This document shows, piece by piece, positions 2,346 through 38,857 of a DNA stretch of 38,857 bases. The stretch comes from an uncultured Sphingobacteriales bacterium (GTDB lineage Bacteria > Bacteroidota > Bacteroidia > CAILMK01 > JAAYUY01): the NCBI GenBank assembly GCA_964625265.1, contig CAZVAY010000001.1, positions 1 through 38,857 on the forward strand, given 5' to 3'. Both the position numbers and the translations under genes were made by a program. The notes under the pieces were generated by a model. The model searched no databases. It saw only the letters and a list, made by a program, of their open reading frames with translations, and had not been told where the DNA came from. Within the stretch, counting starts at the first letter, position 1. Each line of letters opens with the position of its first letter.

Positions 2346-4703
2346 TTATTTTGTGACAAACACTCTTTTCACCGTCCTGAAATCATCTGAATAAACTTCC
2401 AGGAAATATACACCATTCGAAATTTCTTTAGGTACATGGATGGTAACAACATTGCTACCACGGGTAGAATAATAGGTTTTGGATAAAACAATCTTACCAT
2501 CAGGGCCGGTTAGGGTTATTGTAACGGGTTGAATATTGGTTGATGAAAAACCAATGTTCAGGATACCGGATGCCGGGTTGGGCCACAAGGATACAACCGG
2601 TACCTGCCTGGTGTCTTTCGCGGAAAGTGTAGTCGAGCCACCCTCGGTAAGGCGGTAAATATGATCCACCTGCAGATTGGTAAATGTTTCTTTTTTCTGC
2701 GGGGATGTAGGCCACAAGACAACAACCGAATCAACGATGGGTGTATACCCAAGTCCGAAATGCAACCTGTAAGGCTTTTGCATTTTCTGGCCGCGTCCTG
2801 CACAAACTTCCTGCATATACATTTTGCCATTGGCATATACATAAGCTCGTCCACCGATTGCGTAGGCATTGACTGAGGAGCTTCTCAGTTCAATTTCAAT
2901 CCAGCGTTTGTCGTTCCAGACATCATTTTTAAACAACCTGAATTTACCGCCAATGGCTCCGGCCAGATCAAGGCGGCCGTCATTATCGTAATCGAGCCAA
3001 ACGAGGTCGGTGCCTGTATTGATTCCCTCAAGCCCATACTCAAAAGTTTTCAGTTGAAAAGAGTGGTCGGTTTGCTGTTCATAGAAGTCGATATAACGGC
3101 AACCGTAAAAAACGGTTAAAAGGATATCTGCCAGGCCATCATTGTTCACATCTCCCCAGGCACCCCCGGCATGGGTTTCTTCAAGCTCCAGCCCAATGGG
3201 TGAAATCAATCCTTTATTGTTGTTGTACTGCCCTGTCATATCGGTAAAAGTAAAACCAGGAGCCCCTTCGTTGTGATAAATAGCTGTTCCCCTATGGTCG
3301 TAGGGCTCAATAAAGCGGGGATGGGCGAATTGCGGCAGCAACAGGTCAAGGTTGCCGTCATTGTCGTAATCAAACCAGTCTACACCGGTTCCGTGGTTGG
3401 CCCCGGTAGTGTTAATGTCAATGCCTTTGGCGACACAGATATCGGTAAATGTTCCATCTCCATTGTTTTGATAAAACTCATCCTGTTGCAGGAAATAATT
3501 GGTCACATAAAGGTCAGGGTCACCATCATTATCAAAATCGACCCATTGGCTGCCCCTGCTGTTGCGGTTTTTCTCAATAATAAAATTGGCAGGGTCCCAT
3601 TGCAGGTCAGGGTAGTTCCAGGTGCCATCCCACTTGGGGTAAATAGTTTGCGTAGACTCGATAAAACCAAGATTCTGGTCATTAATAAAGAAATGGTTTG
3701 CCTCGGCTTCAGGATAGGTTTTCCATAACTGGCTGACAAAAAGGTCAGGATAATTATCCTTATTGATATCGGCAAAACTGAAGGATAAAAAAGCAGGGAA
3801 TTTTGGTAAATTCAGGCCCTGCGCAGTAAAAGAGTTCTGGTCGTTGATGAACAGCACACAAGAATCCGCCCCAAAAAGGATGATGTCGAGATCAGCGTCA
3901 TTGTCCATATCAACAAAAACATTGGCAACCGTTGAAGGCGTGAAAGATGAAAGTCCTTTATCAGTCGTCACATCCTTGAAAGTTCCATTTTTTTGGTTTT
4001 CATAAAGGTTTCCCTTGAGAATAAGGTCTATCCATCCGTCATCGTTGTAATCTGCAGCAGCAATAGTAGAATTGGAAATATTTTCGTCAATTGAAGCCCT
4101 GGTAGTAAAGTCGGAAAAAATGTTACGTGATTCCGGCAGGGGATAATCTACAAGTACATCTATCGCAAAAGCACGATTCTGATTGCTGGCGAGGTACCAG
4201 GTATTATCGGAGCCGTTCATAACATACTGGTAATAATAAGTGCCACCCGAACCGGACTGGCAGGAAACCGGATGGTCTGTTTTATCGGATATCACCCGTG
4301 CATCGTTAAAATTTTCAAACAAAAGAAAAAACTGGTTGTTGTTAAAGGACACATAAGGGCTGTCAAATTCTGCAACAATTTTTTCTGTTCCATCCTTGGT
4401 TTTGGTCAGGGTGACAGGGTTGGTTACATCATTGAATAGCGAAGCCAGCATTTCACCTGCGGAATGGCCGAAGACTCGCATGGTTAGCGTCCCTCCCTTT
4501 TTTCCTCCCAGGGTCACAACAATAGATTTTATGATCACCGGTTTTTCGAGGTCAAAACGAGCCATTTGTTTGACATAGGTATTGGTATTATAGTAAGTAG
4601 AGGTTGTTGTTGATTCATTGTAAACCCGGATCGTATCTGTTTGAGAAAAGGCATAAAGAGCCATTCCCTGAACCAGGGTAATGATTAGAAACCATTTTTT
4701 CAT
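2346..4703 (-). CDS. secreted FG-GAP/VCBS-repeat (CRTAC1 / ASPIC-UnbV-like) protein with T9SS C-terminal sorting domain
   Basis: 785 aa with signal peptide MKKWFLIITLVQGMALYAFS. Seven Ca-binding-type repeats are present (DYNDDGWIDL, DMDNDADLDI, DINKDNYPDL, DFDNDGDPDL, DYDNDGNLDL, DVNNDGLADI, DYDNDGRLDL). There is an ASPIC/UnbV-like block (RWIEIELRS..AIGGRAYVY). The last ~85 aa (LWPNPASGILNI...GVYFLEVYSDDFRTVKRVFVTK) resemble a T9SS type A CTD. Confidence 0.7.
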   Translation of the reverse strand: MKKWFLIITLVQGMALYAFSQTDTIRVYNESTTTSTYYNTNTYVKQMARFDLEKPVIIKSIVVTLGGKKGGTLTMRVFGHSAGEMLASLFNDVTNPVTLTKTKDGTEKIVAEFDSPYVSFNNNQFFLLFENFNDARVISDKTDHPVSCQSGSGGTYYYQYVMNGSDNTWYLASNQNRAFAIDVLVDYPLPESRNIFSDFTTRASIDENISNSTIAAADYNDDGWIDLILKGNLYENQKNGTFKDVTTDKGLSSFTPSTVANVFVDMDNDADLDIILFGADSCVLFINDQNSFTAQGLNLPKFPAFLSFSFADINKDNYPDLFVSQLWKTYPEAEANHFFINDQNLGFIESTQTIYPKWDGTWNYPDLQWDPANFIIEKNRNSRGSQWVDFDNDGDPDLYVTNYFLQQDEFYQNNGDGTFTDICVAKGIDINTTGANHGTGVDWFDYDNDGNLDLLLPQFAHPRFIEPYDHRGTAIYHNEGAPGFTFTDMTGQYNNNKGLISPIGLELEETHAGGAWGDVNNDGLADILLTVFYGCRYIDFYEQQTDHSFQLKTFEYGLEGINTGTDLVWLDYDNDGRLDLAGAIGGKFRLFKNDVWNDKRWIEIELRSSSVNAYAIGGRAYVYANGKMYMQEVCAGRGQKMQKPYRLHFGLGYTPIVDSVVVLWPTSPQKKETFTNLQVDHIYRLTEGGSTTLSAKDTRQVPVVSLWPNPASGILNIGFSSTNIQPVTITLTGPDGKIVLSKTYYSTRGSNVVTIHVPKEISNGVYFLEVYSDDFRTVKRVFVTK

Positions 4704-14842: not shown

Positions 14843-14853
14843 GCGATTGCAGT

Positions 14854-14907
14854 ACAGTTGACGGGATGCCAGATTAAAACTTATTGAGAATAAAACAGTT
14901 GACAGGA
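14854..14907 (+). repeat. two copies of ACAGTTGAC(G/A)GGA, 41 nt start-to-start, upstream of the HU gene
   Basis: Copies at 14854-14866 (ACAGTTGACGGGA) and 14895-14907 (ACAGTTGACAGGA) are 12/13 identical. They lie 100-150 nt upstream of the HU start. Their function is unknown. Confidence 0.4.
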
Positions 14908-14959
14908 AAATATTTCTGATTTCTTTTTACAAATCAACACCCAAATAAAAAATTATTTT

Positions 14960-14967
14960 TATTTTTG
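14960..14967 (+). promoter_or_regulatory. putative -7 box (TATTTTTG) upstream of the HU gene
   Basis: Fits TAnnTTTG and lies 41 nt upstream of GTG 15008. This is a motif match only. Confidence 0.35.
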
Positions 14968-15007
14968 CCGCTCGAATCTATTGTTTAACAATTAAAAGCG
15001 TACGATC

Positions 15008-15298
15008 GTGATTAAAACAGATGTAGTTACAGAAATCTCCAAGAAAACGGGATTGGAAAAAAGAGATGTCAAAGAAGTAGTAGAAACATTTTTTGATATT
15101 GTAAAAGGATCTTTGATTGATGGTGAAAATGTTTATTTCCGCGGATTTGGAAGTTTCACCCTGAAAAAAAGAGCTCAGAAAATCGGAAGAAACATCACAA
15201 AGAACACTTCTATTGTAGTACCGGAGCATTTCATTCCTTACTTTAAGCCTTCGAAATCTTTTTCAAACAAAGTAAAATCTACCGTTAAGGTAAAATAA
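15008..15298 (+). CDS. hup: HU-family DNA-binding protein
   Basis: 96 aa with a GTG start. MIKTDVVTEISKKTGLEKRDVKEVVETFFDIV...VYFRGFGSFTLKKRAQKIGRNITKNTSIVVPEHFIPYFKPSK is collinear with HU/IHF-fold proteins, including the beta-arm RNxxT..I.P. Confidence 0.9.
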   Translation: MIKTDVVTEISKKTGLEKRDVKEVVETFFDIVKGSLIDGENVYFRGFGSFTLKKRAQKIGRNITKNTSIVVPEHFIPYFKPSKSFSNKVKSTVKVK

Positions 15299-15417
15299 AT
15301 TTGATCTTTTAAATAAATTTTAGGGGCAGTTTAGCTTCAAAGGATTTTATCACGGTTTTTTATTTTGATAAAGAACCCATTTGATCAATCATCATTTGAC
15401 CTATAAATAATATCAAT

Positions 15418-15510
15418 ATGCCAAGCGGGAAAAAGAGGAAAAGACATAAAATATCTACCCATAAGAGGAAAAAAAGGCTGAGGAAAAACAGGCATAAGAA
15501 AAGGAAGTAA
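15418..15510 (+). CDS. 30-aa highly basic micro-protein, bS22-like (AURKAIP1/COX24-type) small ribosomal subunit protein
   Basis: ATG 15418 to TAA 15508-15510 encodes MPSGKKRKRHKISTHKRKKRLRKNRHKKRK, in which 21 of 30 residues are K/R/H. It is too short for the ORF track. The composition and the KRKRHK..HKRKKRLRKNRHK pattern match what I recall for bS22. Confidence 0.7.
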   Translation: MPSGKKRKRHKISTHKRKKRLRKNRHKKRK

Positions 15511-15582
15511 TGTTTGATTTGTAAACTGCTGACTAATAATTTACAAACCAATACCTGTTTCTTAATTTATCAAACCACATAC

Positions 15583-15588
15583 AGGAGG
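15583..15588 (+). promoter_or_regulatory. Shine-Dalgarno-like AGGAGG 7 nt upstream of the TTG start of the RNase G gene
   Basis: A perfect AGGAGG is followed by a 7-nt spacer (GTTAATT) and TTG 15596. No comparable purine-rich motif was seen in front of recA, secA, tsaD, HU, the Nif3 gene, tamB or the bS22-like gene in this window. Confidence 0.5.
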
Positions 15589-15595
15589 GTTTAAT

Positions 15596-27918: not shown

Positions 27919-29172
27919 TTAAAAGCCCCTGCCGGACTTAAAGAACTTTTCCTCAAACGTACCATCGGCATAGCTGCCTTTAAGGATATAAAAACCAGGC
28001 CGAAGGTCATCAAGGGAAACAGGCAGGATCCCTTTAGTAATTCCTGTAAAATTTCTGTGAATGACTATGCGGCCGTACATATCCCAGATTGTAAGCTCAA
28101 GGCTGTAGGGGTCATTGCTGTGGGTTTCCACGTAGAGGTCGCTCACCACAGGATTTGGATACAGCCTAACATGGGTATTGTTGTTCAGGGAATCGTAAAA
28201 GGAGGTGCAACCTCTTTCAACAACATTTGCATAGCTGACCAGGATAGGCCTGTATTTGACAATAGCAGCTTTCATTTTATCACCCTGGCCCGGAGTAAAA
28301 AGTTTCATACAACCATCTGTGCTGTAGTCCATAAAATTTTCTATCATCCTGACATTATTACACTGTACGGGATGTGTGCAATGCGGATAAATGGCATTAT
28401 CGTAGGCCAATGAACAATTTGGTGTGTCCTCGATACCGTCATCATCACTACAACCTCCCTGCCCGCTATCATCACCACCCCAGGGGTGTATCAGGTCGAA
28501 ATAATGCCCGACTTCGTGTGTCGTAGTGCGGCCGAGTTTGTATCCTATAGGATCGTTACTTATCTTTCCAAAAAACTTGTAGGTAATAACAATTCCGTCA
28601 GCATCGAATGAAGGGCCACCTGCATTGGCAGGGGTGTAGGAATAACCCTGGATGTCGGACTCTCCATCAATGGACCGGACTACCCAGATATTGAGGTATC
28701 TTTTAGCATCCCAACGGCTCAGGTCTTTGGTAAGCATTTCTTTGTCTGATTCCAGGTTGGTATAGCTGGATTTAACCCTGACTATTCCCGTTGTCGGGTT
28801 TCCGTCCGGGTCAAGTGAAGCCAGGCAAAAGCGGATCTTTATATCCTCACCACGATCATCGTGGTTAAAACTTCCATAATGGCCAAAATCTTCATTCAGC
28901 ACATTGATCTGGCTGACAACCCTTGCATCTGATATGTTTTCCGGGCCATCATCATGAATAATATGAACCACTACCGGCACCACATAGTATTCGTCCTTAT
29001 AAACAGGAGTTCCGGCACGGAAATGAGTGTTGTTCTGCTTGGGGAACTTGTCCTTATTAAGCTCAGTCATATAATGTGTCAGGCACTTACGGGGGGCTGT
29101 CTGGCTGTACCCCGAATAACCCGAATAAACTAAAAAGACAAGAAGGAGTATTTGTGTATAGCGAAAGGTCAT
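27919..29172 (-). CDS. M43-family (pappalysin/cytophagalysin-like) zinc metalloprotease with T9SS C-terminal sorting domain
   Basis: 417 aa with a signal peptide. It carries the extended zinc motif HEVGHYFDLIHPWG and the Met-turn region ENFMDYS. The last ~85 aa (VRLYPNPVVSDLYVE...GFYILKGSYADGTFEEKFFK) look like a T9SS CTD. Confidence 0.8.
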   Translation of the reverse strand: MTFRYTQILLLVFLVYSGYSGYSQTAPRKCLTHYMTELNKDKFPKQNNTHFRAGTPVYKDEYYVVPVVVHIIHDDGPENISDARVVSQINVLNEDFGHYGSFNHDDRGEDIKIRFCLASLDPDGNPTTGIVRVKSSYTNLESDKEMLTKDLSRWDAKRYLNIWVVRSIDGESDIQGYSYTPANAGGPSFDADGIVITYKFFGKISNDPIGYKLGRTTTHEVGHYFDLIHPWGGDDSGQGGCSDDDGIEDTPNCSLAYDNAIYPHCTHPVQCNNVRMIENFMDYSTDGCMKLFTPGQGDKMKAAIVKYRPILVSYANVVERGCTSFYDSLNNNTHVRLYPNPVVSDLYVETHSNDPYSLELTIWDMYGRIVIHRNFTGITKGILPVSLDDLRPGFYILKGSYADGTFEEKFFKSGRGF

Positions 29173-30799: not shown

Positions 30800-31479
30800 C
30801 TTGATTCTGCTTTTTCTTCTTCCACTATTTTCATTCCGGAAGATGTTCCCAATCTTGAAGCCCCGGCCTTAACCAATTCGCGGGCACCCTCCAGGGTTTT
30901 AATTCCACCAGAAGCTTTGATTCTTATCCTGGAAGGTAGCCATTCCCTGAGTTTGAGAATATTTTCAACTGTTGCACCTTCGCCATTCATGCCTGTGGAT
31001 GTTTTGACATAATCGACACCTATTTCTTCGAGAATTTCGCACACTTTAAGCATTTCAGTATCATCGAGCAGGCAGGTTTCAATAATCACTTTAATTGGTT
31101 TTGCTTTCAGCCTGCAGAAAGTTGCTACACCTTCAATACCATCTTTAACATGGTTGTATTCTCCGGATTTAACTGCCGCAATATTGATGACCATATCAAT
31201 TTCATCAGCACCGTCTTCAATTGCTTTTTTAGTTTCTTCCATTTTAGAACTGATCAACTGATAGCCAAGAGGAAAACCAACTACCGTAACAAGTTTAATA
31301 GGCGAATCGCCTAATATCTCACGGCTGTATTTGACGTAATAGGGTGGAATACAGACTCCCGTAAACCCTTCCTGAATGGCATCTTCCAGGAGCTTTTTGA
31401 CCTGCTCCTTTGTAGTATCAGGTTTTAGTAAAGTCTGCTCAATATATTGTGCAATACTTGTATCGTTATTCTCTGCCAT
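30796..31479 (-). CDS. deoC: deoxyribose-phosphate aldolase
   Basis: [56 protein letters not shown] and the Schiff-base region IKASGGI are present. The start is set at ATG 31479 (227 aa), overlapping the secA 3' end by 14 nt. The ORF-track start 31533 would overlap it by 68 nt. Confidence 0.92.
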
Positions 31480-34400
31480 GACAATGTTTATATTTTTTCC
31501 CACTGCCACAAGGACAGGGTTCATTTCTACCAACTTTTTTCTCCACCCTAACGGGTTCTTTTTTCTTTTGTTGCGTATCTGAATATTCCGGCATTTTCGT
31601 TCCTTCGAAATCGTCCGGCCTTGATTCTTTCAGATTGCTCATATCAGCTCTCTTTTGCTTTTGCCCTTCGTTGATTTCAGCAGGATTCTGGGTGAGGATG
31701 TCTCCTTTGAAAATCATGGGTATTACTTCACGACTGATACGTCCCAGCATGCTTTCAAAAAGCTTGAATGATTCGAGTTTATAGATCAGAATAGGATCCT
31801 TTTGCTCGTATGATGCATTTTGAACCGACTGTTTCAGGTCGTCCAGTTCACGCAAGTGTTCTTTCCAGGCATCGTCAATATGGGTAAGGGTGGTCATTTT
31901 TTCGTAAGCCCTGATTATTTCCCTGCCTTCGGTTTTGTATGCCTTGTCAAGATCGACCAGTACCTCAATGATTTTTCTGCCATCAGTAAAGGGAACAACA
32001 ATATATTTCAGGGTTTTACCCCTTTCTTCGAAAACCTGTTTAATAACGGGCCAGGCTTTTTGAGCAATAGTTTCAACCTTTTGCTTGTATGACTTTTTAA
32101 CTTTTATGAAAAGTTGTTCTGAAAGTTCATGGATTTTACTGTCATGAAACTCCTGTTCAGAAATTTCAGGCCGCGTGGCAAAGTACATCATCACATCTCC
32201 CATAAATGCCTGATAGTCCCCTGATTCCTTATGGATGTCGATAATATCATCCCCAAAATCGAGCAACATACTGTTGATGTCTACTTCCAGCCTTTCGCCA
32301 TATAAGGCATTTCGCCTACGGGTATAAATGACCTCACGCTGAGAGTTCATCACGTCATCATATTCGAGGAGACGTTTACGGATTCCAAAGTTGTTCTCTT
32401 CAACTTTTTTCTGTGCACGTTCGATAGACTTGGTGATCATCGAATGCTGGATCACTTCACCTTCCTGAAGGCCCAGTCTGTCCATGTATTTAGCAATTCT
32501 TTCTGAACCGAAAAGACGCATCAAATTGTCTTCAAGGCTAACATAGAATTGGGAAGAACCCGGGTCTCCCTGTCTTCCGGAACGGCCACGTAACTGTCTG
32601 TCAATACGCCTTGATTCATGACGCTCGGTACCGATAATAGCGAGGCCTCCGGCATCTACTACGCCCTCCCCGAGCTTGATGTCGGTTCCTCGTCCGGCCA
32701 TGTTTGTAGCAAGGGTTACTGCACCTGGTTTACCGGCATGGGCAACAATTTCTGCTTCTCGTTGGTGTTGCTTGGCATTCAATACATTGTGAGGAATTTT
32801 TTGCCTTGTAAGGATTTTACTCAGTAACTCTGAAATCTCAACCGAAGTAGTACCCACCAAAACAGGCCTACCCTTTTTTGTTTGTTCAATAATTTCGTTT
32901 ACTACAGCATTGTATTTTTCGCGTGTGGTTTTGAATATCATGTCTTCCCTGTCGTCACGAATAGTAGGGACATTAGTGGGTATAACAACCACATCCAGCT
33001 TGTATATCTGCCACAATTCACCAGCCTCCGTTTCAGCAGTACCTGTCATACCGGCAAGTTTGTGGTACATCCTGAAATAGTTCTGAAGGGTAATTGTTGC
33101 GTATGTCTGTGTTGATTTTTCCACTTTGACATTTTCCTTGGCTTCAATGGCCTGGTGCAAGCCTTCGGAATAACGCCTTCCATCAAGAATACGGCCTGTC
33201 TGTTCGTCAACAATCTTGATTTTACCATCGGCTACAATATATTCAACATCCAGTTCAAACAAGGTATACGCTTTTAAAAGCTGGTTCACAATATGTATCC
33301 GTTCCGATTTGATGGAGTAGTCCACCAGCAATTCATTTTTTCTCCTGATTTTTTCTTCTTCAGATATTTCAAGCGTTTCCAATGTTGAGATTTCGCTACC
33401 GACATCCGGCATAATGAAAAAATCTTTATCATCACTATTGCTTGTGATCAGGTCGATACCTCGGTCTGTAATATCAATGGAGTTTTGTTTTTCTTCTATG
33501 ACAAAATAGAGATCTTTATCTATTTCAGGCATATTTTTTTGCTGCTCCTGCAAATAATAATTTTCCACTTTTTGCAAAAAGGCTTTAACTCCCTCTTCAC
33601 TCAGGAATTTGATCAGTGCCTTGTTTTTGGGCAAACCGCGATACGCCCGGAGCAACATCATCGCAGCTTCATCGGTAGGCTTCAGGTTGAACCCGTTTTG
33701 CAGGCCTTTTTTTGCAATTGTAAGCGCCTTGTTAACATAATCTTTTTGGACTTTAAGTAATTTCTCTATCTTGGGTTTCAGTTCGTAAAACTTCTCCTGC
33801 TCCTTGTCACTGGTTTCGGTAGGGCCGGAAATAATTAAGGGGGTACGGGCATCATCCACCAGCACCGAGTCAACCTCATCCACCATGGCAAAATGATGTT
33901 TCCGCTGGACCAGGTCTTCCGGGCTACGGGCCATATTATCCCTCAGGTAGTCAAACCCGAATTCGTTATTGGTGCCGTATGTAATATCGGCCAGGTAAGC
34001 ATTTCTTCTTTCGTTTGAATTGGGTTTGTGGTATTCGATACAATCTACGGTAATGCCAAGGAAGTTAAATATCGGGCCATTCCACTCGGCATCCCTTCGT
34101 GCCAGGTAATCGTTGACGGTAACAAGATGAACACCTTTGCCTGAAAGTGCGTTCAGGTAAGCCGGAAGGGTAGATACCAGGGTTTTACCTTCACCGGTAG
34201 CCATCTCGGCAATTTTTCCTTTGTGAAGCACTATCCCGCCAATAAGTTGAACATCATAATGCACCATGGCCCAATTAATCAGGCCCCCTGCAGCATCCCA
34301 ACTGTTTTTATAGATGGCGTTATCGCCTTTTATCTCAACAAAATCCTTGGTTGTAGCCAGGTTGCGGTCAAGTTCAGTGGCAATCACTTCAAGGGTTTCA

Positions 34401-34786
34401 TTTTCGGTAAACCTGCGGGAGGTTTCTTTTACAACGGCAAAAGCTTCAGGAAGTATTTCGTCCAGTACTTCTTCCAGCTTTTCGTTCCATTCTTTTTCCA
34501 ACTTGTCTATTTCGCGGAACAGCTCTTCTTTGTCTTCGGCATCCAGTTCTTCATTTATGTCTATTTCTTCCCTGATAGAACTAATCTTTGCGTCTATTTC
34601 ACTGACCCCTTCCTTGATCCGGTCTTTAAATTCAAGAGTTTTAGAGCGAAGTTCGTCATTCGAAATATTCCTGTACGATTCAAAATGCTTATTTATTTCT
34701 GCAACAGCAGGCAACATGGTTTTGATGTCCCGGTCTGATTTGCTACCAAAAACAGAAGTAAGCGTTTGGGTGATTATGTTTGCCAT
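31466..34786 (-). CDS. secA: preprotein translocase ATPase SecA
   Basis: 1106 aa with [53 protein letters not shown] and the C-terminal zinc finger [14 protein letters not shown]. Confidence 0.98.
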
Positions 34787-34839
34787 TATGCTATCTTCAA
34801 TCTTCTTTATTATTTTAAAGGCCTCGGCCCAATAAGCTA

Positions 34840-34847
34840 CAAAGTTA
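34840..34847 (-). promoter_or_regulatory. putative -7 box (TAACTTTG) upstream of secA
   Basis: Minus-strand TAACTTTG fits TAnnTTTG and lies 54 nt upstream of ATG 34786. This is a motif match only. Confidence 0.3.
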
Positions 34848-34935
34848 AGTAATGCAATTAAACAAGATTATATTAATTGGAGAGGCTTTTGGGGGCATTG
34901 TCAATAACTATACCATAGGATATGTTTTTCTGTAC

Positions 34936-35151
34936 TTAGCAATCGGGAATATGTGCTGTAAGGGTTTGTGGAGTAGAATCCTGTCCTCCGACACGAAAAT
35001 TTGAGCGGGCTACAACCCTTGAATACCTACTGAAACCCTTATGGCATATACCCTTTATTACCAACTGGCCTTTCCTTTTATCTGTCTGTATATCAATTTT
35101 TTTAATTGCTTTTGCTGCAATTTTCTTTGACAATGTAAGCCGGATGATCAT
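34936..35151 (-). CDS. hypothetical 71-aa basic protein, start overlapping the Res-like stop (ATGA); may not be a real gene
   Basis: MIIRLTLSKKIAAKAIKKIDIQTDKRKGQ... has 15 K/R against 4 D and no E. The ATG at 35149-35151 overlaps the TGA at 35148-35150, the same coupling geometry as three bona fide gene pairs in this window. I recognise no family. The 3' half has a different base composition and contains inverted repeats. Confidence 0.3.
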   Translation of the reverse strand: MIIRLTLSKKIAAKAIKKIDIQTDKRKGQLVIKGICHKGFSRYSRVVARSNFRVGGQDSTPQTLTAHIPDC

Positions 35152-37682
35152 TTCATCAAATTTTTCAAATCTTCTTCCTCTTTTCCCTGTTCGATCAAAT
35201 AACACTCAATTTTATCGTTTACCTGAAATTCCTTAAAAGGTATTTGCATCTGATAAGATTTAATATTCTTTTGTTGTTTCTGTTCTGTCATTATATCGAG
35301 AACTTTCTTTTTGTAGGTAGTGTCAATGTTACCAAGAAGATGTTCTCCTTTGCTTTCAATGATGTAAACCAATTCCAAATGATTCTCTGCTGTCTTTTTC
35401 GCTGCCACAAAGTCAGGTCTGATTTTATTCTGCTGCCAGCCTTGTATTGAGTACCATTTTCTGTTTACTTTATTCCTGAACCACCAAAGTATCTTTTCCT
35501 GTTTATCAAGTAAGTCGCCAACTTTCCTTTCAAGCGTGTTCATTGCTGTTACTTCAACATCTTCGAACAAATAATATTTGTAAGTGCTTGGAATTGGGCT
35601 TACTGTTATTACGTCTTCTTTTGGAACTTTGACCCCGACTGTATCATCATCGGATACAGCAAGAACAAGATTTTGGGCTTTTAATTCTTCCAAAAATATT
35701 TCTTCTTCCTGTTTTGTCTTTTCGTCCTGAAACTTTTTACATAGCTGAGAAACAATGAAACTGTAATGTTCTTTAAGTTTTTCCTGGCCTATCTTTTCTT
35801 CAATTTGTGATAAGTATTTCGTTCCGATAATTCTTGCCAAAAATGGATTTTCAATTAATTCATTCAGTCTGCGTGTTAAGTAATCAATATTAATTTCTGC
35901 CTTTCCGTTTGTTTGGCTTTGTTCTTCAACAAATGACGCTTTACTCGAATCATCAAGAGTAATGGCAAATGCTTTCCTTTCTTTTGTCTCGTTACTTAAT
36001 GTATTTTCAAGTTTAGTTAAAAACTCATCATCTAATTCGACTTTTGAAAAATCAATTTTGGGCTTAATATCCAGTTCATAGCTAAATCTTCGTTTTTTCC
36101 CTTCTTTATCAACCATTACCCAAACAGGCAAATAAAATGAATGCTGAAATTTCTCGCTGAACTCTCTTTTTATCTTTACTGTTTTGGTAGCGTTTATGGC
36201 TTCATTATCCCGGAATTTCAATTTTGTAACCAGGTCTTCAAGACCTTCATTTTTGAATCCGGTTGAAACCCTGTCTAAAATTTCTCGTGTATCGCCTTTC
36301 GTGTAATAAACATAACTCTCGTCAAGTTCTTTAACACCTGATTTTCTTGCAAACGGTTGTCGTAAAATTCTACCGACCAATTGGGTAACTCCTGTATTTG
36401 AATTCACATTTGGAATAATTCCCAGTATGTAGGCAAAAGAGAAATCCCAACCTTCACGCAATGCTTCTTTTGTAATGATAAAGCGCACAGGACAACCCTG
36501 CGAAAACAGGTTTACATCTTCAATATCATTTTGCGAACTTGTTTTAATTGCAATTTCATCGGGGTTTACTTCTAAGCTAACCAAATATTCTTTAACGTCA
36601 AGACTGTGAACTCTTCCTTTCCCTCTTTGGTCTTTGCCTGTTGCTTCAACTTGCAATAATGCAGTTGGACGAATATAAACGCCTGTATCTTTTTGATATT
36701 GCTTAGCAGTTTCTTCTAATTTTTCCCGATGTTCTTTGATTTCCTTTACCATCGCTTTCCAGTCGTTCTCCTGCTTGCTGATGGGAGGGAGAATGTGCAT
36801 GTCGAGTTTTACCATTTCCTCCTCTTTAAGCTCAAGGCCTGTAATGGTAACTAAAACATTCATTTCGGCTTTTGGCGTAGCAGAAAAACCAAGAACAAAT
36901 TCGGGATTTAAACTATCAATAGTTTTCCGGGCATTTTCAGAAAATACCTTGTGAATTTCATCAATAATTATAAATGGTTTTGAAATGCGGATTGCGTTTC
37001 CTAGACTTGTCATTATTAAAGGTTGTTCTGTGCCAAGTGGTGAAATATAATCAAGGTTTGGAACTTGCTTCAATAACTGTTCGTGCAAGTCGTAACGATT
37101 ATCGGCAGGGAAAAAACTGTCATAGCCGCCACTGTCCTGAAAAACTTTTAACGCTTCTTTTCCATTTTTGCGACTTATGGACTGAATCATAACGAACAGA
37201 ACAACCAAATTTTCTTCAATATCATGGGTTGTTAACCGTTGTCCTTTTTCCAGGATAATAGTTCGGTTTCCGCTACATTGGTCTAATAACTGGCGTAAGG
37301 GATTTCCCTTGTCCCTGATTTTTTGAACTGTTTGGCTGTAAATAGTCTCGCTCGGAACAATCCATACCACAAGCCCCGTGCGTTTTTGAGCAAAAAGGTT
37401 TTGATATTCACGAATTGATTCAACGGCAAGCAAAGTTTTTCCGCCACCTGTCGGCACTTTAATTATCATTCTTGGATAACTATTCCCTAGTCCGTTTGTG
37501 CATCGGTCTATATATTCCAGACTGCTTGTTTGAAAAGTTGTTTGCACCCAATTTAAAGTATGACGCATAGTTGAAGGCAGTGCCTGTTTCGCAATGTCAA
37601 ACGATGTTTTGGTATCACGGGCTGTTTGCAGAAACTGCTTGAGTGCGTTTACAACTTTTATCTGGTATTTTTTCAGGTACAT
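35148..37682 (-). CDS. type III restriction Res-like protein: N-terminal SF2 helicase/ATPase plus C-terminal PD-(D/E)xK nuclease motif
   Basis: 844 aa. Helicase motif I is VPTGGGKT (aa 76-83, about 37434-37457), motif II IIIDEIH (aa 238-244), motif III FSATP (aa 266-270), a motif V-like TKEALREGWD, and motif VI QLVGRILRQP (aa 434-443). The C-terminus WWFRN..GW..IRPDF-x17-IIESKGE has D757/E776/K778 (35349-35414), as in type III Res endonuclease domains. Confidence 0.75.
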   Translation of the reverse strand: MYLKKYQIKVVNALKQFLQTARDTKTSFDIAKQALPSTMRHTLNWVQTTFQTSSLEYIDRCTNGLGNSYPRMIIKVPTGGGKTLLAVESIREYQNLFAQKRTGLVVWIVPSETIYSQTVQKIRDKGNPLRQLLDQCSGNRTIILEKGQRLTTHDIEENLVVLFVMIQSISRKNGKEALKVFQDSGGYDSFFPADNRYDLHEQLLKQVPNLDYISPLGTEQPLIMTSLGNAIRISKPFIIIDEIHKVFSENARKTIDSLNPEFVLGFSATPKAEMNVLVTITGLELKEEEMVKLDMHILPPISKQENDWKAMVKEIKEHREKLEETAKQYQKDTGVYIRPTALLQVEATGKDQRGKGRVHSLDVKEYLVSLEVNPDEIAIKTSSQNDIEDVNLFSQGCPVRFIITKEALREGWDFSFAYILGIIPNVNSNTGVTQLVGRILRQPFARKSGVKELDESYVYYTKGDTREILDRVSTGFKNEGLEDLVTKLKFRDNEAINATKTVKIKREFSEKFQHSFYLPVWVMVDKEGKKRRFSYELDIKPKIDFSKVELDDEFLTKLENTLSNETKERKAFAITLDDSSKASFVEEQSQTNGKAEINIDYLTRRLNELIENPFLARIIGTKYLSQIEEKIGQEKLKEHYSFIVSQLCKKFQDEKTKQEEEIFLEELKAQNLVLAVSDDDTVGVKVPKEDVITVSPIPSTYKYYLFEDVEVTAMNTLERKVGDLLDKQEKILWWFRNKVNRKWYSIQGWQQNKIRPDFVAAKKTAENHLELVYIIESKGEHLLGNIDTTYKKKVLDIMTEQKQQKNIKSYQMQIPFKEFQVNDKIECYLIEQGKEEEDLKNLMK

Positions 37683-37683
37683 A

Positions 37684-38685
37684 TTATTTCTTTTTCCCTA
37701 ATTTCTTTAATTCCCGTTCAATCATTTTCATGGCTTCCGCATCGGTTGAAGCAATTTGCTTTTTTTCGAATTTCTCAAATTCCTTTTCAGCAAGTTCCAC
37801 TGCCAGATGATGAGAAATTTTGCCTGCATCCAGTAATATCTGTTTTTCATTTAAAGTTAGAAAGTCGTGCAATTTCTTTTCCCAGTCAGCCATATACATG
37901 GGTTTTCGTTTGCGGGCTTGCAATTCGGCAAAGCTAAGGTACTGGTCAACAATCAGGTTTAATTCTGTTAATTCATCCTGGGTTAAATAATTTTTAGCAA
38001 CAGAAACATCAGTTTTTCTGATTTTTCCCTTCGGACTGTTTTTCCATGAAGTCAATCCCATGTTTGGTTTATCCGCGTTTGCCCTGTTGTATATTACTTC
38101 GGCTGCGGTATGCCCATGTATTGCCCAATGCATTTTATTTTGCACCGAGGCAAAAAACAGTTGTGCCTGTTCGCTGTTGGGCGAATAGTCAATACTTGTT
38201 GCATAAATATCTTTAATTTTTGCATAGAAAATTTTCTCAGAACTTCGGATATCCCTGATTCTCTCAAGAAGTTCATCAAAATATTGGTTGGTGTGCCCGG
38301 TTTCTTTCAGTCGTTCATCGTTCAGTACAAAACCTTTAATTAAAAACTCTTTGAGTTGCTGGGTCGCCCAAATCCTGAACTGCGTCCCACGGTGTGATTT
38401 TACACGGTAACCAACAGAAATAATTACATCGAGGTTAAAAAATTTGGTTCTGTATTTTTTGCCATCTGAGGCAGTTGTCAAGTATTCCTTTACAACTGAA
38501 TCTTCTTCCAGTTCGCCCTCGCTGAAAATATTACGGATATGCAGACTGATGTTTTGTTTGGTGGTTTGGAATAGTTGAACCATTTGTGATTGTGTAAGCC
38601 AAACGGTTTCATTTTCCAAACGGACCTCAACTTTCGTTTGACCGTCTTCGGTTTGATATAGCAGTATTTCTGTATTTTCTTTCAT
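37684..38685 (-). CDS. RhuM-family protein (function unknown; R-M-associated)
   Basis: 333 aa. N-terminal LLYQTEDGQTKVEVRLENETVWLTQSQMVQLFQTTKQNISLHIRNIF is followed by the core LDVIISVGYRVKSHRGTQFRIWATQQLKEFLIKGFVLNDERLK and HWAIHGHTAAEVI. This matches the RhuM family as I recall it. The stop TAA is 1 nt from the Res-like ATG. Confidence 0.8.
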   Translation of the reverse strand: MKENTEILLYQTEDGQTKVEVRLENETVWLTQSQMVQLFQTTKQNISLHIRNIFSEGELEEDSVVKEYLTTASDGKKYRTKFFNLDVIISVGYRVKSHRGTQFRIWATQQLKEFLIKGFVLNDERLKETGHTNQYFDELLERIRDIRSSEKIFYAKIKDIYATSIDYSPNSEQAQLFFASVQNKMHWAIHGHTAAEVIYNRANADKPNMGLTSWKNSPKGKIRKTDVSVAKNYLTQDELTELNLIVDQYLSFAELQARKRKPMYMADWEKKLHDFLTLNEKQILLDAGKISHHLAVELAEKEFEKFEKKQIASTDAEAMKMIERELKKLGKKK

Positions 38686-38719
38686 CCAGGCATATTGTTG
38701 AGTTCAACAAAATGGTTAA

Positions 38720-38857
38720 TTACCTCCTTTGAAATAAATTATAAGGAATTCCCACATAATCAATCTGATTGTCGCTTAAATATTCCTCATCCAAAAAGCA
38801 TGACGGTGCATAAACAATCCTCTTTTTACCCGGTTGCTGCTGTTTAATTTTTTCGGC
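38720..38857 (-). CDS. 3' end (last 45 codons) of a gene continuing beyond the window; possibly the Mod DNA methyltransferase of the cassette
   Basis: The minus-strand frame is open from the window edge: AEKIKQQQPGKKRIVYAPSCFLDEEYLSDNQIDYVGIPYNLFQRR, with stop TAA at 38720-38722. The tail resembles C-termini of type III/N6-N4 methyltransferases as I recall them. Its position directly upstream of a Res-like gene fits Mod. Identity is an inference from 45 aa plus context. Confidence 0.35.
   Translation of the reverse strand, partial: AEKIKQQQPGKKRIVYAPSCFLDEEYLSDNQIDYVGIPYNLFQRR

Follow-up and report, generated by a model that had tools for sequence, protein, structure and literature searches.

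How does a multi-gene restriction-modification (R-M) system come to lie directly upstream of a housekeeping gene? This question is raised by the end of a contig from an uncultured Sphingobacteriales bacterium (CAZVAY010000001.1), which was analysed over its complete length of 38,857 nt and is called the window in the following. The feature under study occupies 34936-38857 on the minus strand and consists, in the direction of reading, of the tail of a mod gene, inside which the contig ends, a 333-codon gene of the RhuM family, the 844-codon gene res and an open reading frame (ORF) of 71 codons; secA comes next. A type III R-M system with RhuM is ordinary by itself, and the interest of the locus is in the mode of travel. 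Comparison with other metagenome contigs and loci from metagenome-assembled genomes (MAGs), numbered L001 to L209, indicates that the block is very probably the 3' two-thirds of a large integron-type gene cassette encoding type III R-M.

The evidence for this reading starts with an element of about 130 nt downstream of res. A scan for its exact 16-mer core returned at least 120 metagenome stretches, with about 80 full homologues, and searches with a profile and the covariance model R1 found the copies in same-strand arrays of 3-8, about 0.35-3 kb apart, which separate co-oriented genes. The element folds as a long imperfect hairpin with compensatory changes in 14 of 17 stem pairs. Paired stem cells amounted to 92%, compared with 76% in shuffles (0 of 500 reached the observed value) and 23-40% in slid controls, and the covariation score of 0.39 compares with 0.11 for shuffles and no more than 0.08 for slid controls. 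Family conservation ends sharply, with AAC as the 5' boundary and GTT as the 3' boundary; no other columns are better conserved than these triplets (26-27 of 28), which pair with each other. For 46 pairs of adjacent repeats, we compared the six bases after G↓TT (the arrow marks a junction) with the six bases before the next AAC. They were perfect reverse complements in 32 cases, with a mean of 5.0 out of 6 positions, while random pairs reached 2.2 out of 6 and were perfect in 1.7%. The longest ORF lay on the top strand of the repeat in each of 42 inter-repeat segments (cassettes). Flank complementarity together with the AAC and GTT boundaries is the signature of integron attC sites.

Two A.C mismatches are conserved in the top-strand stem (columns 21/132 and 27/126 of alignment A2). 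On the bottom strand they turn into G.T wobbles, giving an unbroken stem of about 19 bp, and the bottom strand folded better by 0.3-3.7 kcal/mol in all six sites tested. Classical attC sites carry extrahelical bases on the bottom strand that direct strand choice, and these would be expected where the A.C mismatches lie here; the stem of this family contains no single-base bulges. The G.T/A.C asymmetry is possibly a strand-choice device unlike the classical extrahelical bases. Rfam gave nothing relevant at the gathering threshold or at E<=10 and ARAGORN reported no tRNA or tmRNA, so the element is neither a known RNA family nor a tRNA-derived att site.

The R-M module itself is bounded by these sites in its relatives. 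Its 5' end, G↓TTAC(C/A)A(A/G)CAAGCCGAG...AAAGACAACGACAG, follows directly on four different attC sites in L001, L005, L020 and L035, and a 3' attC was found in L003, L005, L008, L022, L034, L037 and the window. The cassette ends match over 9 nt: within L003, the R'' sequence GCTTGTAAC pairs with the start GTTACAAGC, while GTTGGTAA(C/T), found in L022 and the window, is matched by the start GTTACCAAC of L005 and L020. The resulting cassettes are 6.6 kb (L022), 7.4 kb (L005) and 8.0 kb (L003) long, and their full layout is an XRE/HTH gene, slot 1, mod, slot 2, res, a tail and attC. Slot 1, between the HTH gene and mod, was delimited in L005 and L022 (Table 1), with equivalents in L001, L020 and L035. 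It holds an ATPase (AAA_13 of 770 aa, AAA_15 with OLD-TOPRIM of 577 aa, or AAA_15/21 of about 600 aa), ORF6N (170 aa), a 174-aa unknown protein, 23S_rRNA_IVP (124 aa) or nothing; in L067, an 86-aa remnant of an OLD-like gene is left. The R-M cassette also recurs beside other multi-kb R-M cassettes. Arrays of the same kind in L206-L209 have two large R-M cassettes in succession, both ending in an attC site, the first (about 5.3 kb) with an MmeI-like R-M gene, a 328-aa protein, RhuM and a 62-aa ORF, and the second (about 5.6 kb) with HTH, Res and Mod in res-first order.

In some relatives, the arrays start at a recombinase platform. It consists of an Xer-like tyrosine recombinase of about 388 aa (PF13495, PF00589 and PF22823), which lies about 105 nt upstream of the conserved sequence ATAA(A)CA(A)G↓TT. 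In L020, the recombinase has 389 aa and lies on the same strand as the cassettes; it ends about 90 nt ahead of ...ATAAACA↓GTTAGGG. Next to this attI site come a cassette of 355 nt with its attC and, behind them, the R-M cassette. Four contigs with an identical recombinase (P0160) and an identical upstream flank part company precisely behind ...ATATAACAAG↓TT, each running into a different first gene, and an attC site closes each of these first cassettes. An attI site with an attC-bounded array is present in L020 and L199-L203 and is not visible in the window. Platforms of the P0122 type (L195-L198) have an attI-like GTT and no detectable attC.

Homologues of the recombinase form a large Bacteroidales family, and a regular-expression search for tyrosine recombinases found few. 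The protein scored 191 bits against TIGR02249, in two pieces and below the cut-off of 265. In an alignment with VchIntIA it has 17 residues opposite IntI4 residues 183-241, which indicates that the recombinase is without the IntI-specific insertion. Integrons have been reported in Bacteroidota; this platform arrangement was not described in the literature searched, and it may carry a different name elsewhere. In L169, a recombinase homologue is followed by an ORF that, by eye, starts like an IS91-family zinc-finger transposase. Because of this neighbour the homologue was not used as integrase evidence, and some members of the family may belong to IS91-like elements and not to cassette platforms.

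These observations bear on whether the hairpin acts as DNA at all. It might instead be an RNA element of the cassette transcripts, such as a terminator, a 3' UTR stabiliser or a small RNA: its position is always 3' of co-oriented genes, it folds as RNA (z=-2.2), and covariation alone cannot tell RNA structure from single-stranded DNA structure. However, the hairpin has no Rfam family and no T-run terminator, and the better hairpin is formed by the bottom, non-coding strand, with G.T where the coding strand has A.C. An RNA element would also leave three things unexplained, namely the sharp loss of homology at G↓TT, the complementarity between the downstream and upstream flanks of neighbouring repeats, and the identical integrase-attI platforms that diverge at GTT into different genes. 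We therefore regard an RNA element as very unlikely and retain the reading of the repeat as a recombination site.

From the features described and from integron biology, the module would have moved as a circular cassette by means of the tyrosine recombinase. The enzyme would cut the folded attC DNA between G and TT, the circle would join R''-attC-G to TTACCAAC/TTACAAGC..., and the cassette would insert at attI or at another attC. The likeness to sedentary chromosomal integrons and to clusters of attC sites lacking an integrase (CALINs) is close: imperfect palindromes with AAC...GTT cores are found 3' of co-oriented genes in tandem arrays, strands cross over at G↓TT, each cassette begins with bases complementary to its own R'', attI lies beside a tyrosine recombinase, and attC sites are homogeneous within the lineage. 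Differences are seen in the relatives' integrase, which is co-oriented with the cassettes and without the IntI-specific insertion, in the single degenerate attC that the window keeps, and in size. The cassettes described here are 6.6-8.0 kb long with 3-6 genes, whereas the largest known ones are about 2 kb, which is why IntegronFinder groups attC sites with a 4-kb threshold (PMC4889954). Defence genes as cargo have been reported for integron cassettes as well (Darracq et al., 2024; bioRxiv 10.1101/2024.07.02.601686), but those are biased to compact type II/IV R-M; integrons are described as selecting for compact defence systems, with long ones lacking (same source). Integron cassettes are commonly viewed as small and mostly single-gene; here, an operon of 6.6-8 kb shows every comparative hallmark of a cassette. 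Its content, R-M with RhuM, is of known kinds, and what would be new is the multi-kb modular cassette packaging and the non-canonical platform seen in relatives.

Several points weigh against the cassette reading. In the 38.8-kb window there is one attC only, no tyrosine recombinase or integrase and no second cassette, and the 5' boundary in this genome would lie past the contig end, which falls inside mod. Most close R-M relatives (e.g. L002, L004, L007 and L009-L013) have no attC match at E<=1, so either the module is not always a recognisable cassette or their attC sites are too divergent for the model. The 3' attC of L005 does not match the 5' start of the same locus. The attC body differs among loci that share the same R-M cassette, the tail of about 170 nt and the R'' flank (L003, L008 and L034 compared with L022 and the window; Table 1), which one-site integron recombination does not predict and which points to another site of exchange close to AAC or to conversion between attC sites. 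As the recombinase is without the IntI-specific insertion, the recombination chemistry is inferred, and the evidence for the crossover at G↓TT is comparative. The activities of Mod, Res and RhuM are predicted, and the fold match of RhuM is weak.

The single copy, the missing recombinase and the many relatives without a detectable copy would also fit a repeat of another kind, a miniature inverted-repeat transposable element (MITE) or REP-like sequence that landed after res, with the R-M island having come by homologous recombination, with an integrative and conjugative element or in some other way. Such a repeat is hard to reconcile with an element that has no terminal inverted repeats and no target duplications, with copies strictly co-oriented with the preceding genes in 42 of 42 cassettes, and with R-M module ends that are mutually complementary and abut four different upstream repeats exactly at G↓TT. 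We give this explanation hardly any weight and keep to the integron-type cassette.

In the window, the attC copy is clearly recognised (covariance model R1, 114 bits, E=2e-25; nhmmer, E=1e-34), but it is decayed: both core triplets are mutated and the stem is partly mismatched. Its fold was the weakest tested, with a DNA minimum free energy of -14 kcal/mol (z -1.35), compared with -21.9 kcal/mol (z -3.4) for a consensus-like copy. With both triplets and part of the stem lost, the cassette is probably fixed next to secA and thus immobilised there. It may be the last cassette of an array that lies past the contig end, or a solitary one. Homology with related cassettes stops at the R' box, and the host DNA beyond it, upstream of secA, contains TAACTTTG at 34847-34840, which we take to be a putative match to the Bacteroidetes -7 consensus TAnnTTTG.

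Table 1. Positions of the features in the window and of the corresponding intervals in related loci.
Feature	Position	Strand	Remarks
mod, 3' end, 45 codons and stop	window 38720..38857	-	type III methyltransferase (predicted); contig ends inside gene
RhuM-family gene, 333 aa	window 37684..38685	-	slot 2 cargo; Pfam PF13310, PADLOC PDC-S05
res, 844 aa	window 35148..37682	-	type III restriction subunit (predicted); SF2 helicase-like ATPase and C-terminal PD-(D/E)xK nuclease
Remnant of the tail downstream of res, 81 nt	window 35067..35147	-	alignment with L005, L022 and L037
Frame described earlier as coupled micro-ORF, 71 codons from ATG	window 34936..35151	-	open frame, no family match
Decayed attC	window 34933..35066	-	R'' AAT 35059-35057 (consensus AAC); R' GCT 34940-34938 (consensus GTT)
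Host DNA, likely secA promoter region	window 34787..34932	-	homology with related cassettes stops at R' box
secA	window 31466..34786	-	housekeeping neighbour, not part of the element; Pfam domains, downstream synteny with relatives
Slot 1	L005:309-2914; L022:3924-4630		between HTH gene and mod
Tail downstream of res	L005:7133-7303; L022:9960-10143		non-coding
attC bodies, first form	L003:8014-8150; L008:6223-6359; L034:2049-2185		same R'' flank as the second form
attC bodies, second form	L022:10144-10282; window:34933-35066
Two consecutive multi-kb cassettes	L207:1703-13002		example of L206-L209
Recombinase platform	L020:3403-4572 and 4640-4665; L200-L203:8001-9280; L199:8001-9270		recombinase and attI
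ORF of 76 aa between res and tail	L003:7578-8013		HNH-like Cys/His pattern
Recombinase homologue with IS91-like neighbour	L169:4113-4900		by eye
Gap without ORFs >=100 aa	window 14843-15595		about 750 nt

The 71-codon frame at the end of the block coincides with this attC site. It had been described earlier as an extra small gene translationally coupled to res, and a four-gene operon of this kind, a non-canonical type III system with two extra proteins, has some features in its favour. The frame exists, its ATG (35151-35149) overlaps the res stop TGA (35148-35150) in an ATGA, and 58 of 70 closely similar copies keep it open. Started at GTG, it would comprise 89 codons (34936-35205). Nevertheless, its product has no match in Pfam, NCBIfam or PADLOC, and its stop TAA falls inside the mutated R' box. 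The ATGA overlap is unique to the window: in L005, L022 and L037 the homologous DNA begins 171-184 nt past the res stop, about 90-100 nt farther away than here, so the relatives conserve neither the start codon nor the coupling. Among 28 diverse copies, 13 have stops in this frame and no reading frame is conserved; the copies are 121-127 nt long, with differences that are not multiples of three. Their variation is compensatory across the hairpin and not of the synonymous/non-synonymous kind, and the element follows dozens of unrelated genes as well. We consider the four-gene operon extremely improbable. By this comparison, the frame is not a gene but covers the non-coding, decayed attC site, from which a lesson for annotation follows: a small ORF "coupled" to an island's last gene can turn out to be an attC site.

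The remaining genes are those of a type III R-M system. For mod, the tail in the window gave a weak PADLOC MTase_III match (E=0.0015) restricted to the extreme C-terminus, and it shares 89-95% identity with the ends of Mod proteins encoded upstream of Res in related loci. The gene could be lengthened by 1,193 nt with the metagenome contig L191 (2,998 nt, from JGI 3300002231), which is 99.9% identical over 1,805 nt. Exact-protein look-ups with Res and SecA found no further contig, and the added 1.2 kb come from L191 alone. The L191 product carries FAGSG and matches N6_N4_Mtase (E=1e-22); in the full-length Mod of L022 (N6_N4_Mtase, E=3e-39), DPPY precedes FAGSG. The order DPPY, variable region, FxGxG is thus seen in L022 and partly in L191, and the central part of Mod varies among relatives, as expected for a target-recognition domain. 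The mod gene encodes a predicted beta-class N6/N4 DNA methyltransferase.

The res product was matched by PADLOC REase_III (PDLC03653, E=3e-140, residues 57-802), by Pfam ResIII (E=3e-17) and by DEAD. The motifs PTGGGKT, IIDEIH, SAT, REGWD, QLVGRILR and RPDF...IIESKGE are intact in the translation. Similarity to the EcoP15I subunit is very low, with a weak match to 4zcf_C (E=1.7e-7 over about 80 residues), and NCBIfam gave no match for any of the four products of the block. DNA similarity to most relatives ends at the res stop, while L005, L022 and L037 share with the window a conserved non-coding tail and the element of about 130 nt. The tail is 171-184 nt long in these relatives, and the window has lost about 90-100 nt of it. 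In L003, an additional 76-aa ORF with an HNH-like Cys/His pattern and no Pfam match lies between res and the tail.

With mod upstream of res on one strand, an N6_N4_Mtase Mod and a Res with SF2 motifs and a C-terminal PD-(D/E)xK motif, the system resembles the type III systems EcoP15I and EcoP1I and the PADLOC models REase_III and MTase_III. Type III enzymes such as EcoP15I cleave in an ATP-dependent manner at two inversely oriented unmethylated sites and hemimethylate their target. By analogy, a Mod dimer would methylate a short asymmetric site on one of its strands, and unmethylated invading DNA with two inversely oriented sites would be cut by Res2Mod2 or Res1Mod2 with the use of ATP. In contrast to the classical systems, the operon includes an XRE/HTH gene and as many as two accessory genes as insertions, and attC sites delimit the unit as a whole. 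A small XRE-type HTH gene as the first cassette gene in the relatives recalls R-M systems controlled by C proteins, which are classically described for type II systems. It would be consistent with delayed nuclease expression after transfer; such control is inferred, and the HTH gene of this cassette would lie past the contig end, outside the window.

The mod, RhuM and res genes are packed as one predicted minus-strand unit. The mod stop TAA (38720-38722) is separated by a 34-nt gap from the RhuM ATG at 38685, and the RhuM stop (37684-37686) by one base from the res ATG at 37682. Between mod and res, which lie on the same strand with mod first, there is no terminator-like site and no promoter-like site above chance; the sigma-70 promoter and terminator scans gave chance level only, with the promoter scan not modelling Bacteroidetes promoters. 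The preliminary description had given the same spacings, including the ATGA overlap, which proved exact on direct reading of the sequence, and it had rightly named the upstream gene a methyltransferase, the 333-codon gene RhuM and res a helicase/nuclease.

The identity of RhuM is clear from PF13310 (E=4e-113, 377 bits against a cut-off of 33.7, profile positions 1-248 of 252) and from the PADLOC candidate PDC-S05 (E=1.5e-146). Across 63 related loci, mod and res are adjacent in 41, mostly 5-24 nt apart with two gaps of 145 and 158 nt, and the junction holds other genes in 22. RhuM occupies it in L010, L011, L020, L022 and the window, a 281-aa Bro-N protein in ten loci and, truncated, in one more. 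Further cargos are a PD-(D/E)XK protein, a trypsin-like protein and toxin-antitoxin-type pairs (PIN with DUF2281, DUF2283, nucleotidyltransferase with HEPN). In occupied alleles, mod ends with the codons AAAGGAGG-TAA, which provide an AGGAGG Shine-Dalgarno sequence and thereby create a ribosome-binding site for the next gene; in empty alleles it ends with ...CAACGTAACCAATAA instead. RhuM would accordingly be co-translated from a ribosome-binding site built into the last mod codons. On this comparison, the mod-res junction is a cargo slot, and RhuM is one of many alternative cargos. The preliminary description had overlooked this, as well as the integron-type cassette as the means of mobility.

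The tight spacing, with a ribosome-binding site in the 3' end of mod and a single nucleotide before the res ATG, might suggest that RhuM is an integral third subunit or regulator needed by the type III enzyme. A predicted structure gives this idea some substance. The AF2 model (pLDDT 86.5, from a deeper alignment; a shallow alignment of sequences 73-100% identical gave pLDDT 45) has a beta-rich, winged-helix-like N-terminal domain, which could bind DNA, and a helical C-terminus. The best fold analogue in the PDB was the DNA-binding protein DdrC, a weak match (E=6e-3, TM 0.34-0.45); no fold match at E<=0.001 and no enzyme-like analogue was found there, and the PDB sequence search returned nothing. 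A Fic/DOC-like fold, which had been expected, was not found in the fold search. Against a required subunit, Res proteins 89-96% identical sit at junctions that are empty or hold unrelated genes, and RhuM homologues of 75-76% identity stand alone among housekeeping genes or lie in a cassette with MmeI-like R-M. A necessary third component is very improbable in our view. The RhuM family is large, at over 33,000 representative clusters. In this system RhuM is an accessory that is optional and moves independently, and its predicted role is most likely that of a second-line defence or a DNA-binding factor.

R-M operons with embedded genes are already known, and the layout had been presented with more novelty than it deserves: RhuM-like genes within such operons, with a proposed role as toxins, have been on record since 2013 (Anantharaman et al., 2013; PMC3710099). 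As in those operons, which embed RhuM, Fic/DOC, PrrC/RloC or HEPN genes, RhuM lies here at a position otherwise taken by toxin-like genes, and the alternative cargos are of the same kinds (HEPN with MNT, PIN, AAA_13 ATPase). The present system differs in its type III host, in its two slots (HTH-mod and mod-res) with base-precise boundaries, and in the remodelling of the mod stop region into a ribosome-binding site. The associations described before are reportedly with type I systems.

The origin of the block was followed with a scan of one genome per species, which gave 70 loci with relatives of Res. More than 30 of these are 81-98% identical; their MAGs carry the labels Rikenellaceae, Prolixibacteraceae, Mariniphaga and other Bacteroidales, and in a few cases those of other phyla. 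Proteins 89-96% identical to Res occur in MAGs of other Bacteroidales families, where the genomic surroundings are unrelated, whereas the nearest non-self SecA is only 78% identical. None of the 70 loci has secA adjoining the R-M module; in the distant locus L057, a 45%-identical secA lies several kb upstream of mod. Three relatives keep the order secA-DeoC-SPOR-M20-M43 and have LptF/G, YkuD or small genes, and no R-M genes, upstream of secA. Since the syntenic relatives are without R-M upstream of secA and the Res relatives lie away from secA, the block is an insertion and not core synteny. In three of the loci (L006, L035 and L037), Res proteins 92-94% identical come from MAGs labelled Bacillota, Caldisericales and Ignavibacteriaceae, labels that reflect either very recent transfer across phyla or mis-binned contigs with cassette arrays.

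On a wider scale, Bacteroidales and their neighbours may carry an unrecognised integron lineage, a proposal to which we give slightly less than an even chance. It would combine a co-oriented Xer-like integrase of about 388 aa without the additional domain, attC sites of about 130 nt that use the G.T/A.C asymmetry for strand choice, and whole defence operons of 5-8 kb as single cassettes with swappable slots, with the block at secA as a fossil mega-cassette. The integron surveys consulted all define IntI by the IntI-specific insertion (additional domain); if the recombinase works without it, these surveys miss the whole lineage for this reason. If the proposal is true, the recognition of attC hairpins becomes testable in a second, independent enzyme family.

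The base composition of the block agrees with an acquisition from outside. Its G+C content is 0.370, compared with 0.412 in the remaining contig, and none of 125 windows of the same size elsewhere in the contig is as low (minimum 0.378). The tetranucleotide distance between the block and the rest is 0.266, more than 6 sd beyond other windows (mean 0.152, sd 0.018, maximum 0.19). Spot values are 0.30 for 35161-35220 and 0.55 for 28441-28500. Both the horizontal acquisition and the deviant composition that had been proposed from the sequence by eye are thus upheld, the latter beyond chance. The only other low-G+C patch in the contig is a gap of about 750 nt (G+C about 0.35) upstream of a 515-aa ORF that is RNase E/G-like by eye; it contains no ORF of at least 100 aa and has no Rfam match. 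The objection that low G+C is nothing special, as 14.5-16 kb also has 0.35, was rejected: this patch is a non-coding gap, and at the 3.9-kb scale the low-G+C island is still the extreme of the contig.

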